A stretch of DNA of 64,000 nt from an uncultured Sphingomonas sp. (GCF_964250165.1 NZ_CAXUEK010000004.1:2660-66659); one strand, 5' to 3'; counted from the first letter of the stretch, positions 1,164-34,720 are shown. The notes: generated from the letters alone by a model not told the origin. Numbers and translations: made by a program.

Positions 1164-2933
1164 ATGAAGATGTCGCTCCTCGCCACCGCCGCCTTGGGCC
1201 TGCTCGTCGCGCCGGCGGATGCCCGACAGACGACTGCAAGGCGATCCGCACCTGCAGCGCAGGGGATGGTCAGCGCCGCCGACCCGCGCGCCGCCGCGGC
1301 GGGCGTGGAGATCCTGAAGGCAGGCGGCAGCGCCACCGACGCGGCGATCGCCACCATGCTCGCGCTCGGCGTCGTCGAGCCGCAAAGCTCCGGGCTGGGC
1401 GGCGGCAGCTACTGGGTGCGGCACGCAGCCGCGACCGGCAGGACCGACACGATCGACGCGCGCGAGATCGCGCCGATGGCGGCCGGCCCGCGCTGGTTCT
1501 ACACGCCGCCGGACGCTGGCGACGGCAAGCCGCTCAGCCACGACGACGCGGTGCCGGGCGGCCGCAGCGTCGGCGTGCCGGGCGCCGTGCGCGGCATGGC
1601 GCTGGCGTGGCGGAACGGCGGCAAGCTGCCCTGGGCGCGGCTGTTCGCGCCGGCGATCAGGCTGGCGCAAGGCGGCTGGGTCGCGAGCCCCCGCTTCGTC
1701 GGCGGACTGGCCAGCTATGGCGGTCACATCACGCCCGCCACGCGCGCGCTCTTCACGGGGTCCGACGGACAGCCGATCCGGCCCGGCGGCACGCTCCACA
1801 ACCCGGCGCAGGCGGCGCTGCTGGAGCGGCTGGCACGGCTGGGCCCGGACAGCTTCTATGTCGGCCCGCAGGCGGCGAAGCTGGTCCAGACCGTCGACGG
1901 CGCCGCGCGCAACCCGTCGAAGATGGTGACGGCCGACCTCGCCGGCTATGCGGCGAAGGCGCGCGCGCCGGTTTGTGCGCCGTATCGCGTCTACCGTATC
2001 TGCAGCATGGGGCCGTCCTCGTCTGGCGGGATCACGGTGCTGATGATCCTGAAGCAGCTGGAGCGGTTCGATCTGACGGGCATGGGCAAGGACTCGCCCG
2101 TCGCCTGGCACCTGTTCGCCGAGTCCTCGCGGCTCGCCTATGCCGACCGCAACCTCTATGTTGGCGATCCCGACTTCGTGCAGGTGCCGATCGCCGGCCT
2201 GCTCGACCCGGCCTATCTCGCGTCGCGCTCGGCACTGCTCTCGCCCGACCGATCGCTGACCGCCATCGCCGCCGGCACGCCACCCGGCGCGCCGTCGCGC
2301 ACGCGCGCCACGCCCGCCGAGGTGCCGGGCACCACCGATCTGGCGGTGGCGGACGGCCGCGGCAACGTCGTCGAGGTGACGACCACCGTCGAAGGCGTGT
2401 TCGGCTCCGGGCTGTCGATGGATGGGATCATCCTCAACAACCAGCTGACCGACTTCGACATCGTGCCCGAACAGGCCGGCTATCTCGTCGCCAACCGCGT
2501 CGAGCCCGGCAAGCGGCCGCGTTCGTCGATGTCCCCGACCATCGTCTACGGCCCCGACGGCCAGGTGCGGCTGGCGCTCGGCGCGGCAGGCGGGCCGACC
2601 ATCATCGCGCAGATCGCCAAGGCGCTGGTCGGGGTGCTCGACTGGAAGCTCTCGGCGCAGGACGCGATCGCGCTCGGCCTGATCTTCGCGCCGGGCGAGA
2701 CCGCCTATGCCGAAGAGGGCACGCAGCTGGATGCGATGCTGCCGGCGCTGCGCCGGCTCGGCGAACACATCCAGAGCGCGCCGCTGGGCCTCAAGGCCAA
2801 TGCCGTCGAGCGGGTCGACGGGCGCTGGGTGGGCGCGGCGGACCCGCGCAGCGAGGGGGTCGCCATCGACACCGCCGGCCACGTCACGGCGCCTGTGCGG
2901 GTCCAGCCGCTGCCGGGCCGTCCGCCCGAATAA
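1164..2933 (+). CDS. ggt: Gamma-glutamyltransferase, secreted
   Basis: Signal peptide; VEPQSSGLGGG, catalytic GTT(D)L..AD, TTTVEGVFGSG, LNNQLTDF, PGKRPRSSMSPT. Confidence 0.93.
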   Translation: MKMSLLATAALGLLVAPADARQTTARRSAPAAQGMVSAADPRAAAAGVEILKAGGSATDAAIATMLALGVVEPQSSGLGGGSYWVRHAAATGRTDTIDAREIAPMAAGPRWFYTPPDAGDGKPLSHDDAVPGGRSVGVPGAVRGMALAWRNGGKLPWARLFAPAIRLAQGGWVASPRFVGGLASYGGHITPATRALFTGSDGQPIRPGGTLHNPAQAALLERLARLGPDSFYVGPQAAKLVQTVDGAARNPSKMVTADLAGYAAKARAPVCAPYRVYRICSMGPSSSGGITVLMILKQLERFDLTGMGKDSPVAWHLFAESSRLAYADRNLYVGDPDFVQVPIAGLLDPAYLASRSALLSPDRSLTAIAAGTPPGAPSRTRATPAEVPGTTDLAVADGRGNVVEVTTTVEGVFGSGLSMDGIILNNQLTDFDIVPEQAGYLVANRVEPGKRPRSSMSPTIVYGPDGQVRLALGAAGGPTIIAQIAKALVGVLDWKLSAQDAIALGLIFAPGETAYAEEGTQLDAMLPALRRLGEHIQSAPLGLKANAVERVDGRWVGAADPRSEGVAIDTAGHVTAPVRVQPLPGRPPE

Positions 2934-2970
2934 AGCGCGCGAGCCCAACAGGGCCGTTCCGGGAGAGAGA

Positions 2971-4749
2971 ATGCGTCACCTCGAACATTTCCCCAATCTC
3001 GTCGCGATGTTCTTCGCGCGCGCTGCCGAGAAGGGCGAGCGGCCGTTCCTGTGGCGCAAGCACGACGGCATATGGCAGCCGACGAGCTGGGCCGAGGCGG
3101 CGCGCAAGGTCGCCAGCCTCGCCACCGCGCTCCAGGCGCTGGGGCTCCAGCGCGGCGACCGCGTGATGCTGGTCAGCGAGAACCGGCCGGAATGGTGCAT
3201 CTCCGATCTGGCGATCATGGCCGCGGGGCTGGTCACCGTCCCCGCCTATGTCACCAACACCGAGCGCGACCACCAACACGTGCTGGAGAATTCCGGCGCG
3301 TGCGCGGTGATCGTCTCCACCGAAAAGCTGGCGCGCACGCTGATGCCCGCGGTGATCCGTTCCAACCAGGGCCAGCTGCTGATCGGCATCGACGAGATGC
3401 GCTTCCCCGCCACCGTCGAGCATCACGACTGGCGCGACCTGATCGCGCGCCACCCGACCGAGCCGGCCACCCTCCCCCTTCCGTTCGCGCGCGAGGACCT
3501 GGCCTGCATCATCTACACCTCGGGCACCGGCGGCGCCCCGCGCGGGGTGATGCAGCATCACGGCGCGATCCTGCACAACGTCGCTGGCACGGTCGCCGTG
3601 ATCTCGGAGGATTATGGCTGGGGCGAGGAGGTCTTCCTGTCCTTCCTGCCGCTCAGCCACGCCTATGAGCACACCGCCGGCCAGCACGTGCCGATCGGGC
3701 TGGGCGGCCAGATCTATTATGCCGAGGGGCTCGATCGGCTGGCCGCCAATATCGAGGAGGCGCGCCCGACGCTGATGGTGGTCGTGCCGCGGCTGTTCGA
3801 GGTGCTGCGCGCGCGGATCACCAAGGCGGTGGAGAAGCAGGGCGGGCTGGCCCGGCGCCTGCTGGCGACCGCGCTCGAGCTCGGCGCGCGCGAGCAGGCC
3901 GGCGGTCTGCGCTGGCGCGATCGGCCCGCGAAGATCGCCGTCGACACGTTGTTGCGGCCCAAGATGCGCAAGCGGTTCGGCGGGCGCCTGAAGGCGCTGG
4001 TGTCGGGTGGCGCGCCGCTGACGCCGGAGGTCGGGCTGTTCTTCCAGTCGATCGGGATCGAGCTGCTGCAGGGCTATGGCCAGACCGAGGCGGCGCCGGT
4101 GATCTCGTGCAACCGGCCCGGGGCGGGTATCCGCATGGACACGGTCGGCCCGCCGCTGCCGGGCGTCGAGGTGCGGATCGCCGACGACGGCGAGATCCTG
4201 GTGCGCGGCGAGCAGGTGATGCACGGCTATTGGCGCAACGACGCCGAGACCGCGCGGGTGCTGCAGGACGGCTGGCTGCACACCGGGGACATCGGGCTGT
4301 TCGACGACGGCGGCCGGATCAGGATCACCGACCGCAAGAAGGACCTCATCATCAACGACAAGGGCGACAATGTCGCGCCGCAACGGGTGGAGGGGATGCT
4401 CACCCTCCAGCCGGAGATCATCCAGGCGATGATCGCGGGTGACCGCCGCCCCTATATGGTCGCGCTGCTCGTGCCCGATCCCGAATGGGTGCAGGAATGG
4501 TGCGCGGCCAATGGCCAGACGTGCAGCTTCACGGGGCTGGCCGAGAACAGCGCCTTCCGGACCGCGCTCGGCCGCGCGGTGGAGCGGGTGAACCGGGATT
4601 TGTCGGTGATCGAGCGCGTCCGCCGCTTCGTGCTGGCCGACGAGCCCTTCACGATCGAGAACGGCCAGCTGACGCCGTCGCTCAAGATCAGGCGGCACAT
4701 GATCCGGGAGATCTACGGCGAGCGACTGGACGCGCTCTACAAGAGCTGA
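2971..4749 (+). CDS. Long-chain fatty acid--CoA ligase (AMP-dependent synthetase)
   Basis: IYTSGTGGAPRGV, LPLSHAYE, GYGQTE, GWLHTGDIG, ITDRKKD motifs. Confidence 0.9.
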   Translation: MRHLEHFPNLVAMFFARAAEKGERPFLWRKHDGIWQPTSWAEAARKVASLATALQALGLQRGDRVMLVSENRPEWCISDLAIMAAGLVTVPAYVTNTERDHQHVLENSGACAVIVSTEKLARTLMPAVIRSNQGQLLIGIDEMRFPATVEHHDWRDLIARHPTEPATLPLPFAREDLACIIYTSGTGGAPRGVMQHHGAILHNVAGTVAVISEDYGWGEEVFLSFLPLSHAYEHTAGQHVPIGLGGQIYYAEGLDRLAANIEEARPTLMVVVPRLFEVLRARITKAVEKQGGLARRLLATALELGAREQAGGLRWRDRPAKIAVDTLLRPKMRKRFGGRLKALVSGGAPLTPEVGLFFQSIGIELLQGYGQTEAAPVISCNRPGAGIRMDTVGPPLPGVEVRIADDGEILVRGEQVMHGYWRNDAETARVLQDGWLHTGDIGLFDDGGRIRITDRKKDLIINDKGDNVAPQRVEGMLTLQPEIIQAMIAGDRRPYMVALLVPDPEWVQEWCAANGQTCSFTGLAENSAFRTALGRAVERVNRDLSVIERVRRFVLADEPFTIENGQLTPSLKIRRHMIREIYGERLDALYKS

Positions 4750-13618: not shown

Positions 13619-14931
13619 GCGGCCGCCTGGATGCGCGCCACGCCGGCGAGCGAGTTCGGCCCGGCCTCGACCAGCTCGACCGCGATCAGATCGCCGATCG
13701 GCGCCGCCGCGTCGAGATGGACCGATTGCAGCCAGGGCGATTTGCCGAGCACCTGCCCCGGCCGCTTGCCGGGCCGCTCGATCAGCACTTCGCAGATCCG
13801 GCCGACGCTGGCCCGATTGAAGGCGAGCTGATCCCGGTTGATCGCGGCCTGTAGTCGCTGGAGCCGCTCGTTCATCTCCTCCGGCGCGATCCGGCCCGGC
13901 AACGTCGCCGCCGGGGTGCCCGGACGCGGCGAATAGTTGAACGAGAAGGCCTGGGCATAGCCGACCGCGTCGACCAGCCCGAGCGTCTCGGCGAACTCGG
14001 CCTCCGTCTCGCCTGGAAAGCCGACGATGAAGTCGCCCGACAGCGCGATGTCCGGCCGCGCCGCGCGAATGCGGTCGATCAGCCGCAGGTAGCCGTCGCG
14101 CGTGTGCGAGCGGTTCATCGCCCGGAGCACCCGGTCGCTGCCGGCCTGCACGGGCAGGTGCAGGAACGGCATCAGGCCTGCCACGTCGCGGTGCGCGTCG
14201 ATCAGGCCCTGCGTCAGGTCGTTGGGATGGCTGGTCGTGTAGCGGATGCGGGCGAGACCGGGGATGCGGTCCAGCGCGCGGATCAGGTCGTGCAGGCCCT
14301 GCTCGCCATCCGCCCAGGCGTTGACGTTCTGGCCGAGCAGCGTGATCTCCTTCGCGCCGGCATCGATCAGCGCCTTGGCCTCGTCGACGATCGCCGCGAA
14401 CGGCCGGCTCACCTCCGCGCCGCGCGTGTAGGGGACGACGCAATAGGTGCAGAACTTGTCGCAGCCCTCCTGCACGGTCAGGAACGCGCTCGGCGCGACC
14501 CGGCGGCGGGCGGGCAGGCCGGCGAACTTGGCGAGCGCCGGCAGCGCGGTGTCGATCGCGGGCGCGCCCGCGGCGGCGTCGCGGACCAGCGCGGGCAGCC
14601 GGTGATAGGCCTGCGGGCCGACCACCACGTCCACCTTGGCGCGCGCGACGATCTCCTCGCCCTCCGCCTGCGCGACGCAGCCCGCCACCGCGATCATCGG
14701 CGCGGCGCGGCCCGCCAGCCGCGCGGTCTTCCGCATCCGGCCGATGTCCGAATAGACCTTCTCCGTCGCTTTCTCGCGGATGTGGCAGGTGTTGAGCACC
14801 ACCAGGTCGGCGCTGTCCGCATCGGCCGCCACCAGCCCGTCCGTCGCCATCAGCTCGCTCATCCGCTCGCCGTCATAGACGTTCATCTGACAGCCGAACG
14901 ATTTGACGTGGAAGGTCCTGGGCGCGCGCAT
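13615..14931 (-). CDS. miaB: tRNA (N6-isopentenyl adenosine(37)-C2)-methylthiotransferase MiaB
   Basis: [19 protein letters not shown], radical [24 protein letters not shown] domain. Confidence 0.97.
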
Positions 14932-15076
14932 GGCGGCTCCTTTAGGCCAAGCCGCGCGGCTTCCCAACCGTCCTGCGCGCGCCTGGCCTCCCGATCGGGA
15001 TCGCGCCGAAAGCTGCCGGGCCGCTTGCGGGGGCCGCTGTGCCGTTCGCGAACGTCGCGAAGTGGTGGTGAGCCGT

Positions 15077-15115
15077 CCGTCCGCTTTCGGGTGCGCGGGG
15101 GTGTTTAGCTGCCGT
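15077..15115. repeat. Imperfect palindromic cassette-boundary element (left)
   Basis: Minus strand ACGGCAGCTAAACACCCCCGCGCACCCGAAAGCGGACGG contains the TAA stop of the 87-aa ORF; 3' half matches the element at 15685-15755. Confidence 0.55.
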
Positions 15116-15368
15116 AGGATTTGAGCTGAACCCAAATGGTCGGGACATCGTATTCTGCGGCCCATTGCTGTGCGGCTGCCAATGCGACTTTTAATGAAAC
15201 GTCGTTCTCGGCCAAGGAGCCATATCCAACCCATTCGCCGTTGGCCTTGAATGAGCCACCCGAACCAAAGAACCTTCCATCGTTAGAGGCGTCGATTGTA
15301 AGCCACCGCTGATCGTCACCTTGATCCGGCATTTTCTCGTCGGGAGACAGATAGATGATAGCTACCAT
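15105..15368 (-). CDS. Orphan hypothetical protein (87 aa) in AT-richer islet
   Basis: Protein-like composition with ATG start; AT-ending codons unlike flanking genes; no recognised motif. Confidence 0.7.
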
Positions 15369-15403
15369 CAGACGATTTTGAATAGCAGGGCCAACGATTT
15401 CAA

Positions 15404-15426
15404 GTAGACCGTCACCGGCTACCGTT
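15404..15426. repeat. Short/truncated cassette-boundary hairpin (middle)
   Basis: Minus strand AACGGTAGCCGGTGACGGTCTAC folds as GTAGCCG/CGG(T)CTAC with a bulged T and contains the TGA stop of the 85-aa ORF. Confidence 0.4.
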
Positions 15427-15669
15427 CCGTCGCCGGGAGAGATGGTTGATTAGCAATCGAGTGATGATCCCAGCCGCGAGCGCGATGACGAGCGCTCCGA
15501 GGATCAGCTTCCACACGATGTCGTGATTGCACGGCGCGTCGGGTATGCAATCTCCCAAGGCGCTAACCAGCACAGCCAGCCCGAGCAGCGGTAGCCCGAC
15601 TATGGCAGCGAGTGCGCAGCCCCACCTGCCTCCGGGTGTTCCTGCCCCACGATAGCCCCTACCAGTCAT
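15412..15669 (-). CDS. Orphan small membrane protein (85 aa, two predicted TM helices, C-IPDAP-C loop)
   Basis: Two hydrophobic stretches separated by GDCIPDAPCNHD; atypical codon usage. Confidence 0.65.
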   Translation of the reverse strand: MTGRGYRGAGTPGGRWGCALAAIVGLPLLGLAVLVSALGDCIPDAPCNHDIVWKLILGALVIALAAGIITRLLINHLSRRRNGSR

Positions 15670-15684
15670 TTGAGCAGGCTGAAC

Positions 15685-15755
15685 GAGCGGCAGCTATCGG
15701 GCAAGGGCGAAGAGCGCTGGTATCTCTGGCTTTGGGCGACGGAAGACTGACGCTC
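15685..15755. repeat. Imperfect palindromic cassette-boundary element (right)
   Basis: GAGCGGCAGCT...AGACTGACGCTC inverted ends; minus-strand 3' half CCCGATAGCTGCCG matches CCCGAAAGCGGACG of the left element. Confidence 0.55.
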
Positions 15756-15761
15756 GGAGCT

Positions 15762-15989
15762 GGCGCGGGCAAGACTGGCGGCAAGGTCGCGCTCGGCCCC
15801 GTCACGCGCGAATCGGTGATCGGCGACCGCGCCTATGTGCTCGTGCCCTCCGCCTACACCTTCCAGCAGAAGGGGCGGAGGATGCGCGAGACCGGCACCA
15901 TGACCTTCGCGCTCGTAAGGCAGGCCGCGGATTGGAAGATCCAGTCGTGGACGTGGAGCAGCCCGGAGGGCGTGCCGGTCAGGAAATAG
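15762..15989 (+). pseudogene. C-terminal remnant of a SnoaL/NTF2-like (DUF4440-type) protein gene
   Basis: GDRAYVLVPSAYTF...MTFALVR....WKIQSWTW is a typical NTF2-fold C-terminal strand pattern; host-like GC3 begins right after the boundary element; 5' half absent. Confidence 0.6.
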
Positions 15990-16701
15990 CGGCCGCCTCG
16001 ATCCGCCGTCGCGCCTCGACCGCGATCGCCTTGCGGCCGGGATGGTCGGCGGGGGCGAAGGCGTCGAGGAAGCGCAGCGTCGCGACGAACGTCCCCGGCC
16101 GGCGCAGGACCCGCGCCGCATGAGACTGCCCCGGCTCGGCCCCCACCCAGGCGAGCGCGCGCGTCGCGTCGCCATAGTCGATGCGGATCGGCTGCACGCG
16201 CGCGCTCGGCGGCGGCGGGTCGAGCGCGGCGAGCAGCGCCGCCTTGAACGGCAGCAGCGCCACGCCGTCGCCGGTCGTGCCCTCGGGAAACAGCGTCACC
16301 GCCCAGCCATCGCGCAGCGCCCCACGGACCTGCTCCACCTGGGCCGCCACCCCCATCCGGTCGCCGCGCGCGACGAACAGCGTGTGGTTGAGCGTCGCCA
16401 GCCAGCCGACCAGCGGCGCCCGGCGGAGCTCGGCCTTGGCGACGAAGCAGCTTCCCGTCGCTCCGGCGATCAACAGGATATCGAGCCAGCTCAGATGGTT
16501 GGCGACGAACACCACGTCGCGCGCGAGCGGCGCCCCGACGATCCGGGCGCGCGCGCCGCTGATCCGGGCGATGCGGCCGAGCAGCCAGCGCGGCCAGGGC
16601 GAACGGCGGCGGCACAGGCGCCAAAGGCCGTGGCCGGCGAGCGCGAGGAGCAGCGCGAGCACCATCGCGGCCAGGCGGAGCGTGAAGCGGAGACGGCTCA
16701 T
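15979..16701 (-). CDS. Lysophospholipid acyltransferase family protein (PlsC/OlsA-like)
   Basis: NHLSWLD (HX4D), FVAKAE, LFPEGTT. Confidence 0.92.
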   Translation of the reverse strand: MSRLRFTLRLAAMVLALLLALAGHGLWRLCRRRSPWPRWLLGRIARISGARARIVGAPLARDVVFVANHLSWLDILLIAGATGSCFVAKAELRRAPLVGWLATLNHTLFVARGDRMGVAAQVEQVRGALRDGWAVTLFPEGTTGDGVALLPFKAALLAALDPPPPSARVQPIRIDYGDATRALAWVGAEPGQSHAARVLRRPGTFVATLRFLDAFAPADHPGRKAIAVEARRRIEAAAIS

Positions 16702-34135: not shown

Positions 34136-34720
34136 TCAACCGACCGTCACGGCGGTGTCGGATGTGAAATTATACGGGGGAACCTCGAGATTCCGCGGGG
34201 CCGGGCCTTTGCGGATGCGCGCGGCGGTGTCGTATTGCGAACCGTGGCACGGGCAGAAATAGCCGCCGAACTCGCCGCGGTTCTCGCCCTCGGCCGCCCC
34301 GAGCGGGATACAGCCCAGATGGGTGCACACGCCCATGGTGATCAGCCAGTTCTTCTTGCCGGCCTTGGTTCGCGCTTCCAGCGTCTGCGGGTCGCGCAGG
34401 TCGCCGATCGCCACCGCGTCGGCGGCCTTGATCTCGGCCGGCGTCAGATTGCGGACGAACAGCGGCTGCTTGCGAAACGAGGTCTTGATCGCCTGGCCCG
34501 GCGCAATCTTGCTGAGATCGACCTCCGTGGTCGAATCCGCCAGCACGTCCGCGGACGGGTTCATCTGGTTGACCAGCGGCAGCACGATCGCCACCCCGCC
34601 CGCGCCGGCGAAGGCGATCGCGGCGATGTTCAGGAAGTCGCGGCGGCGGGGATCATGCACCTCCTCCGTCAGCAGCGCCGGGTCTTCGCCGGGAGGAAGC
34701 TGATCGTTCACGGTCGCCAT
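34136..34720 (-). CDS. petA: Ubiquinol-cytochrome c reductase Rieske Fe-S subunit
   Basis: Tat-like [13 protein letters not shown] and CPCHGS boxes, GPAPRNL. Confidence 0.97.

Follow-up and report, generated by a model that had tools for sequence, protein, structure and literature searches.

The closest described relatives of the system considered here are integrons and the attC-site clusters that have no integron-integrase (CALINs). Integrons carry a single array of mostly promoterless cassettes downstream of attI and the Pc promoter, and their attC sites, of 57-141 nt, are folded and recognised by structure. No integron, In0 or CALIN was found in 243 alphaproteobacterial genomes, an absence that the authors of the survey found puzzling (Cury et al., PMC4889954). 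This work concerns two small open reading frames (ORF1 and ORF2) and the short repeated sites around them, located between miaB and a plsC-like gene in a stretch of 64,000 nucleotides (hereafter the window) from an uncultured Sphingomonas sp. (GCF_964250165.1, NZ_CAXUEK010000004.1:2660-66659). The locus is probably a stranded mini-array of two single-gene cassettes, ORF2 and ORF1, belonging to a site-specific gene-capture system that is served by a tyrosine recombinase of ~205 amino acids. The system is found mainly in Sphingomonadaceae (a label that in all counts below takes in Sphingomonas and Altericroceibacterium), in some Caulobacterales and in phage contigs. A literature search found no published description of it, and as a gene-capture system it is apparently undescribed.

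As to its mechanism, the sequences incline us slightly towards a second, integron-independent cassette system, in which a recombinase reduced to its catalytic domain would act on double-stranded 30-bp sites, in trans on scattered mini-arrays, the left arm of a site ending one cassette and the right arm serving as −35 box of the next gene. Shared with integrons and CALINs are a tyrosine recombinase linked to same-direction arrays of mostly single, small and unrelated genes, one site per junction with ORFs running into it, toxin-antitoxin cassettes in related arrays, a content that varies between species, and orphan arrays that outnumber complete systems. The differences concern the enzyme, which is here a ~205-aa catalytic domain only, without the N-terminal core-binding domain and outside the IntI family; the site, a conserved 30-bp palindrome with a conserved centre; the arrays, which flank the recombinase gene on either side with opposite orientations and, as mini-arrays, are scattered between housekeeping genes; and the cassettes, many of which seem, from the spacing of their starts, to carry their own promoter.

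The pdif (Xer) modules of Acinetobacter plasmids and the integrative mobile elements exploiting Xer (IMEX) are likewise small units bounded by short core sites (~11-6-11), with no recombinase gene inside the module and the enzyme acting in trans. They differ in that a dedicated small recombinase, and not XerC/XerD, is linked to the sites here, that array sites here point one way whereas pdif sites alternate, and that the arrays here are mostly chromosomal (BLAST with one site gave two weak matches in the plasmid collection and none in the phage collection). A likeness to dif itself was rejected, the dif-like cores of five genomes of the family reading CATAAT-NNNNNN-TATC, for example CATAATGTATATTATC, unlike the arms AATGTCCGC...GCGGACATT of the present sites. 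In the promoter-early stem-loop (PeSL) cassettes of T4-type phages, which Arbiol et al. reportedly described in 2010, a short motif made of a promoter and a palindrome is said to flank small variable ORFs and to mark exchange points. A short conserved promoter/palindrome motif around small variable ORFs, at exchange points and in phage genomes, is also what we describe; the differences are a dedicated recombinase gene bracketed by sites, the presence of sites in chromosomes between housekeeping genes, and a conserved asymmetric centre suggestive of a strand-exchange region. The minimal mobile elements of Neisseria, with their dRS3/NIME repeats, spread through transformation and through homologous recombination in their flanking sequences, dRS3 being the target of an IS110-type enzyme. 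They resemble the present cassettes in that different whole-gene units occupy the same place between conserved genes across strains, with a short inverted repeat and spacer at the boundaries, and differ in that no link to IS110 was found for the sites studied here.

The 30-bp site family and its cassettes

The site family was modelled with R1, a covariance model built from 24 site copies, which gathered 93 copies from 39 loci. The site extends over 30 bp, AATGTCCGC-TWT-CSACCC-ATW-GCGGAC-RTT, and the consensus of the 93 aligned copies is AAtGTCCGC-TwT-CsACCc-ATw-GCGGAC-rTT. Inverted arms of 9 bp, AATGTCCGC and GCGGACATT, flank a conserved asymmetric centre of 12 bp, TWT-CSACCC-ATW, and C9 and G33 are invariant across the alignment. 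The motif is common to both flanks of ORF1 homologues. R1 matches are present in 50 of the 151 Sphingomonadaceae genomes (E ≤ 0.01), at 1-24 copies each, and in 3 of 150 genomes of other alphaproteobacterial families (E ≤ 0.001), which doubles as a specificity control. Stop codons fall frequently in the left arm or the centre, TAA occupying the first three positions of the centre in 18 of the 93 sites.

Sites cluster in same-direction arrays between housekeeping genes, in islands and in phage or viral contigs, so that the motif, far from being unique to the window, brackets small low-GC genes at many loci and in many genomes, as the preliminary description of the window had anticipated. The genome G463 has two arrays, one with 9 sites and one with 11; in G261, 2.1 kb contain 7 sites, and Caulobacter sp. 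RL271 has about 15 in 7 kb; the settings include pgm/rlmE, mnmA and a formate-nitrite transporter gene (focA-like), and corA. The array ORFs, of 68-190 aa, have a third-position GC content (GC3) of 0.55-0.67 against ~0.9 in host genes, and most are without Pfam match. In the G261 array (L045) there is one site per junction, and several ORFs end within the site as GTCCGC-TAA or GGCAGC-TAA. The spot downstream of mnmA illustrates the turnover of the cassettes: in five species of one genus it holds, respectively, no cassette, two sites around a short hairpin, other content with site copies, two cassettes and six cassettes, none of the cassettes being common to two of the species.

The boundaries of the exchanged unit can be placed within the site. 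Contigs L034 and L037 are 100% identical to L035 up to the site centre (...TTTCGACCA) and divergent from the next base. Where a cassette occurs in several contexts, conservation starts at the centre of its upstream site and extends through the left arm and the centre of its downstream one, and the outer site halves vary. A cassette spans the interval between the centres of two successive 30-bp sites, and its 3′ end bears the left arm, which in many cases contributes the stop codon or lies next to it; these junctions suggest that the sites act as exchange points. Two gene families recur near sites. A gene for an SOS-response-associated peptidase (SRAP) stands directly beside a site in two unrelated genomes (L046:5064-5699 and L081:10737-11444) and may be a recurrent cassette. 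A LytTR-type response-regulator gene lies 0.1-5 kb from sites in five loci (L021, L050, L052, L064 and L147, one of them on a viral contig), which may be due to chance, the family being common.

The preliminary description had suggested that the window elements may be single-strand hairpin sites, a proposal that the sequences do not bear out. Within sites, the arms show no covariation (75% paired, versus 74% in shuffles); the upstream right arm and the downstream left arm of the same cassette pair like random arms (5.69 versus 5.44, p = 0.14); and the folding of the three elements originally described in the window is not superior to that of shuffles (z = +1.06, −0.40 and +0.93). Since no arm-pairing signal is present, the arms look like conserved protein-binding half-sites in duplex DNA and not like a selected hairpin.

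These data also bear on a divergent classical integron remnant, that is, a CALIN with atypical attC sites. The cassette logic, the stops within sites and the toxin-antitoxin cassettes of related arrays would suit it. The sites, however, are much shorter than attC, lack its RYYYAAC/GTTRRRY signature, as had been noted from the start, and show no covariation or folding signal; the position corresponding to the G of the attC triplet GTT carries A in 51 of the 93 sites and G in 33; and no IntI is present, the XerD-like and XerC-like proteins of the window's own genome (G000; ~70% GC, 3.0 Mb in 151 contigs, 92% complete) scoring 94 and 85 bits on TIGR02249, whose cut-off is 265. A canonical attC reading of metagenome intergenic sites was also tried and rejected, the folds being weak and the ends unpaired. 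Because IntI, attC and the attI/Pc layout all fail, we do not take the locus for an integron or CALIN, and this explanation keeps hardly any probability.

The right arm appears to have a second role. The upstream layout of ORF1 homologues is TTGCGG-N17-(−10-like)-N6-ATG, and of 58 downstream ORFs in the same direction, 20 begin 32-38 nt past the right-arm TTGCGG, a uniform distribution over the searched range predicting ~4. In the window, the site between ORF2 and ORF1 (site B) supplies from its right arm the TTGAAA of a promoter-like TTGAAA-17-CAAAAT, which is followed after 6 nt by the ATG of ORF1. From this spacing we infer that the TTGCGG of the right arm may be the −35 box of a leaderless cassette gene.

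A small tyrosine recombinase flanked by sites

The recombinase was found by mapping Phage_integrase matches onto the site positions. In six independent genomes or populations, a gene for a ~205-aa tyrosine recombinase is flanked by inverted sites and has arrays on both sides. In Altericroceibacterium xinjiangense (G431) the gene, encoding 208 aa, lies amid 14 sites, with six plus-oriented sites upstream (the last ~40 nt before the start) and seven minus-oriented sites downstream (the first at the stop), and it is bracketed in the same way in G435. The three close homologues examined (at least 83% identity), from Sphingomonas sp. CP045434, S. hankyongi and a metagenome population, all show this layout; in CP045434, seven plus sites, one per junction among five small genes, are followed by the recombinase gene and then by minus sites. 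Two strains of that population (L228 and L229) are identical through the recombinase gene and the adjoining site, and then carry different cargo.

The similarity of the protein to XerC/XerD is limited to their catalytic half (~residues 125-281), about 100 N-terminal residues being absent; the catalytic R, H-x-x-R, H and Y are conserved in it. It reaches no cut-off in NCBIfam and does not match IntI (TIGR02249). The family must be very common in environmental data, since at least 7,979 clusters match it at E ≤ 1e-40, many of them at 80-88% identity. The geometry of the sites, with 9-bp inverted arms, or 12-6-12 when the arms are extended inward, would fit the simple core-site architecture of the Cre/Xer type. 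A co-occurring tyrosine recombinase or HUH nuclease had been envisaged in the preliminary description; the former was encountered as a minimal enzyme linked to sites in six contexts, and of the latter no trace was seen, no Y1 transposase (PF01797) matching in G000, G463, G261, G462 or G498.

Other candidate enzymes were considered. A 193-aa tyrosine recombinase (L061:9736-10317, in G261) has no adjoining site and is absent from the other site-rich genomes; its family occurs in 14 of the 151 genomes and shares 34% identity over 74 aa with the site-linked enzyme. Island integrases with DUF6538 are present in none of the seven site-richest genomes, IS110 transposases show no link to sites, Y1 transposases of the RAYT type were dismissed on the PF01797 result, and resolvases (PF00239) gave no match in the site-rich G261 and G067 and only a fragment in G463. 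It is nevertheless conceivable that the cassette system is real and another enzyme acts on it in trans, either a serine recombinase of the resolvase/invertase type (TGTCCG half-sites, 12-2-12) or one not yet recognised, the ~205-aa recombinase being only frequent cargo. The 26-bp core TGTCCGC-N12-GCGGACA has what we take to be the size of an invertase site, and GTCCG presumably resembles a gamma-delta res half-site; moreover, a Resolvase+HTH_7 gene lies 3 kb from the array of G561, and the tyrosine recombinase family co-occurs only weakly with sites at genome level (see below). However, G261 and G067, with 24 and 10 sites, are without any resolvase-family match, the small resolvases of G462 have no adjoining site, and the Y1, IS110, DUF6538 and 193-aa candidates are all unlinked to sites. 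We therefore regard service by another enzyme as unlikely.

Several observations speak against a capture system served by the ~205-aa recombinase. Across the 151 genomes the wider recombinase family, including relatives of 50-62% identity and fragments, co-occurs weakly with sites (21/26/29/75; odds ratio 2.1, p = 0.06, the related genomes of the panel not being independent). Four of the seven most site-rich genomes (G463, G498, G462 and G067) have no copy of the recombinase and G261 has a fragment only, and most relatives of 57-60% identity are without site within 1.5 kb. The recombinase gene itself could be cassette cargo. Some junctions have tandem site pairs, 48-62 nt apart, where simple one-site integration predicts none. 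Finally, as G000 is 92% complete, a recombinase gene could lie in its unassembled DNA. The weak co-occurrence would result if complete systems were few and orphan arrays numerous, a situation known from integrons and CALINs; service by another enzyme, or shuffling that needs no recombinase, would be compatible with it too. The 57-60% relatives (L214-L220 and L222-L224) have a GGCCA-N4-6-TGGCC palindrome before the ribosome-binding site, a GC-rich terminator after the gene and no site copy, and may serve another site class. At the tandem junctions of L043, L044, L048 and L049 the two sites are 48-49 or 60-62 nt apart, the first having a CCACC-type centre and the second a CGCCC-type centre.

The scarcity of recombinase copies in site-rich genomes and the tandem pairs of an end-site and a start-site would both be accommodated if the sites were regulatory linkers, a promoter with a stem-loop as in PeSL, around moron-like genes that are shuffled by general or phage homologous recombination in the absence of any dedicated recombinase. 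The right arm at −35 distance from many cassette starts, the promoter-like match in the window and the arrays in phage contigs and in a P2-like prophage point the same way, as does the lack of a gene common to most array neighbourhoods: an all-against-all BLAST of ~40 loci found no recombinase as shared neighbour, only LytTR regulators, SRAP and cargo families recurring. Yet a promoter role leaves the left arm and the strongly conserved asymmetric centre unexplained, the motif has no T-run terminator, imperfect 30-bp repeats are poor substrates for RecA-type recombination, and a linker does not account for six independent recombinase genes, each set between inverted sites of top score and with an array to either side. 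Regulatory linkers are accordingly a rather improbable explanation, and capture by the small recombinase remains the one that we prefer.

The miaB-plsC insert and its four site copies

In the window the two cassettes lie between the start of miaB and the stop of plsC (Table 1). In the closest relatives the two genes are put ~55-65 bp apart, and their matches in G015, G013, G003, G001, G022 and G023 are separated by ~20-75 bp; in G000 the gap measures ~1 kb; in other relatives of the genus it ranges from 230 bp to 2 kb, with unrelated content, and one of them (G012) has another site copy there. The gap being short or variable in relatives, the ~1 kb of G000 is inserted material at a variable spot. 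ORF1 and ORF2 are, as first described, co-oriented and AT-richer than their surroundings, both lying on the minus strand in a dip of GC content (0.52-0.55 across the two, versus ~0.70-0.76 around them). The cassette unit extends from ~15045 to ~15716, and not over 15077-15755 as originally given.

Table 1. Features of the miaB-plsC locus in the window, and further cassette loci of the same genome (G000)
Feature	Position	Strand	Remarks
fur		-	first in minus-strand gene order
plsC-like acyltransferase gene	15979-16701	-	after fur
SnoaL/NTF2-like gene, C-terminal fragment	15738..15989	+	weak SnoaL_3 match; part of insert
Site C	15679..15716	-	upstream boundary of ORF2 cassette; below R1 threshold
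ORF2 cassette gene	15412..15669	-	85 aa
Site B	15389..15426	-	between ORF2 and ORF1; decayed
ORF1 cassette gene	15105..15368	-	87 aa, conserved hypothetical
Site A	15076..15116	-	12-nt insertion in centre
Site A'	15045..15083	-	full-length, in tandem after site A; R1 covariance model
miaB	start ~14932	-	last in minus-strand gene order
Variable spot, miaB start to plsC stop	14933..15978		holds insert; from comparison with relatives
Cassette locus L054	C8:8092-8999		site-bracketed low-GC3 ORF of 211 aa between high-GC3 host genes
Cassette locus L053	C13:32254-32642 and 34447-34485		site-bracketed low-GC3 ORF of 108 aa between high-GC3 host genes
Cassette locus L055	C25:4085-4460		site-bracketed low-GC3 ORF of 91 aa between high-GC3 host genes

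The four site copies of the window share one orientation and follow the order C, B, A, A'. The centre of site C, TTCGCCC plus a TTGCCC duplication, and its right arm, AGCTGCC and GTTCAG, are well preserved, and its left arm is poor or lost; the layout CTTCGCCCTTGCCC..GTTCAGCC..ATG in which the site takes part recurs in L034-L038. In site B, the left arm GGTAGC is followed by the ORF2 stop, and the right arm has degenerated to TTGAAATCGTTGG, which keeps the −35-like TTGAAA. Site A comprises, in this order, the left arm GGCAGC, the ORF1 stop TAA, the centre ACACCC, the insertion and the right arm GCGGAC. Site A' is the only window copy scored by R1 (27 bits, E = 2.7e-4 in 75 kb). With three of the four sites damaged (B degenerate, A with an insertion, C without its left arm), the mini-array is read as decaying.

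The preliminary description had recognised three related hairpins with stop codons in their 5′ arms and a 3′ arm shared by two. The stops are indeed there, ORF1 ending in ...GGCAGC-TAA and ORF2 in ...GGTAGC-CGG-TGA. The shared arms do exist, as parts of a 30-bp site family that is widespread and not as hairpin arms: the 5′ arm (ACGGCAGCT) corresponds to the left arm of the site, in its GGCAGC variant, plus the stop codon, and the 3′ arm (CCCGAWAGCKGMCG) to the end of the site centre plus the right arm. The three elements do belong to this family; the middle one is decayed, and the copy that scores, A', which lies just beyond the range first given, had been missed.

It could be argued that the window elements are alike by chance in GC-rich DNA, or are palindromes of the type of repetitive extragenic palindromes (REP) and bacterial interspersed mosaic elements (BIME), the genes having been inserted by unrelated events. 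They fold like shuffled sequence, their pairwise similarity is short, the exact 3′-arm pattern occurs only 3 times in G000, and a single window copy passes the model. Against this, the DNA homology to the same cassettes elsewhere extends through the flanking sites: site A is homologous to the sequence 3′ of the L014 homologue of ORF1, out to 15064, and homology to metagenome cassettes with ORF2 homologues begins within site C, at 15712 (versus L036). Since the homology reaches into the flanks, the resemblance is not fortuitous. In addition, G000 has about 6-10 site copies genome-wide, a scan giving 5 and 10 matches at ≤8 and ≤9 mismatches, compared with 0 and 2 in the reversed genome, and a low-GC ORF is bracketed at each of its best loci (on C8, C13 and C25, and in the window). 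REP systems run to hundreds of copies and possess a RAYT, whereas the model matches number 1-24 per genome and no Y1 transposase was found in the five genomes searched for PF01797, which also argues against palindrome-associated elements derived from IS200/IS605 (PATE). The flank homology, the distribution of the family and the recombinase-site layout have largely refuted chance or REP origin, and we consider it very unlikely.

Contrary to what had been supposed, neither gene is an orphan. The homologues of ORF1 fall into 79 clusters, at 58-83% identity, from Sphingomonas, Blastomonas, Erythrobacter, Citromicrobium, Caulobacter and Brevundimonas; its family is present in 7 of 401 genomes of the order, and the contexts are unrelated: purN/tolA-like genes, a Blastomonas island, a Caulobacter array and thiolase/suhB. 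ORF2, whose product, judged by eye, is hydrophobic and probably membrane-spanning, has 12 homologue clusters; they are found in rows of small co-directional genes that include ParE and HigB/HTH_3 toxin-antitoxin cassettes, among the tail genes of a P2-like prophage, and in Sphingomonas pokkalii. Thus both ORFs recur at other loci in other contexts, as the proposal of mobile cassettes had anticipated. Neither has a significant match in Pfam or PADLOC. The two families were not found adjacent at any other locus examined, which argues that ORF1 and ORF2 are two separate units placed side by side. In the prophage (L040, contig JBMDXG010000270.1), positions 1679-3384 hold two site-bounded cassettes, with the ORF2 homologue and a DUF6968 gene, flanked by baseplate and tail-completion genes; phage genomes, too, therefore receive moron-like genes through the system.

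The remainder of the insert contains the SnoaL/NTF2-like fragment, on the strand opposite to the cassettes and overlapping the plsC stop, with a counterpart at the locus in none of 11 relatives. An NTF2-family gene also precedes a site copy on a plasmid of Sphingomonas paeninsulae (L064). A search of 14800-16100 against Rfam gave no match. In relatives, the same hot spots are occupied by hairpins resembling REP or miniature inverted-repeat transposable elements (MITEs) and unrelated to the site family, of the types CCCCTCTCC...GGAGAGGGG and GTCACCCCGGAC...GTCCGGGGTGAC (L011, L012, L067, L068 and L203), which break metagenome contig assemblies. Contig breaks upstream of an ORF1 homologue were rejected as a polymorphic junction, their cause being a MITE.

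Proposed mechanism and meaning for sphingomonads

We propose a model in which a dimer of the small recombinase would bind both arms of a double-stranded site and strand exchange would take place within the conserved centre. Cassettes would be excised as circles and inserted at any resident site. The 5′ end of each would carry the right arm, with TTGCGG as −35 box of the promoter of a leaderless gene. The recombinase would also act in trans on arrays scattered among housekeeping genes, instead of on one platform, and the cassettes of G000 would be immobile remnants in decay. The only tyrosine recombinases of this genome are XerC-like and XerD-like, and no copy or remnant of the small enzyme was found in it; its cassettes are for this reason considered stranded, in the manner of CALINs. 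No integrase is encoded in the window, as had been reported, nor any beyond XerC/XerD in the genome, so any action at this locus would be in trans. The earlier idea of a trans-acting cassette system is thus retained in so far as these are gene cassettes of a non-integron system, and abandoned in its single-strand hairpin mechanism.

The window copy is probably an inactive remnant, and its value is that of a pointer to the system. Should the proposal be correct, a single 30-bp element would combine a recombination site with a stop codon and a promoter, and the enzyme, a tyrosine recombinase of very small size that seemingly needs no N-terminal DNA-binding domain, would be of interest to mechanistic studies and as a tool. 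The puzzling absence of integrons from Alphaproteobacteria (PMC4889954) would be answered in part by a separate cassette system within one large family of the class, and many 'orphan' low-GC islets between the core genes of sphingomonads would be explained.

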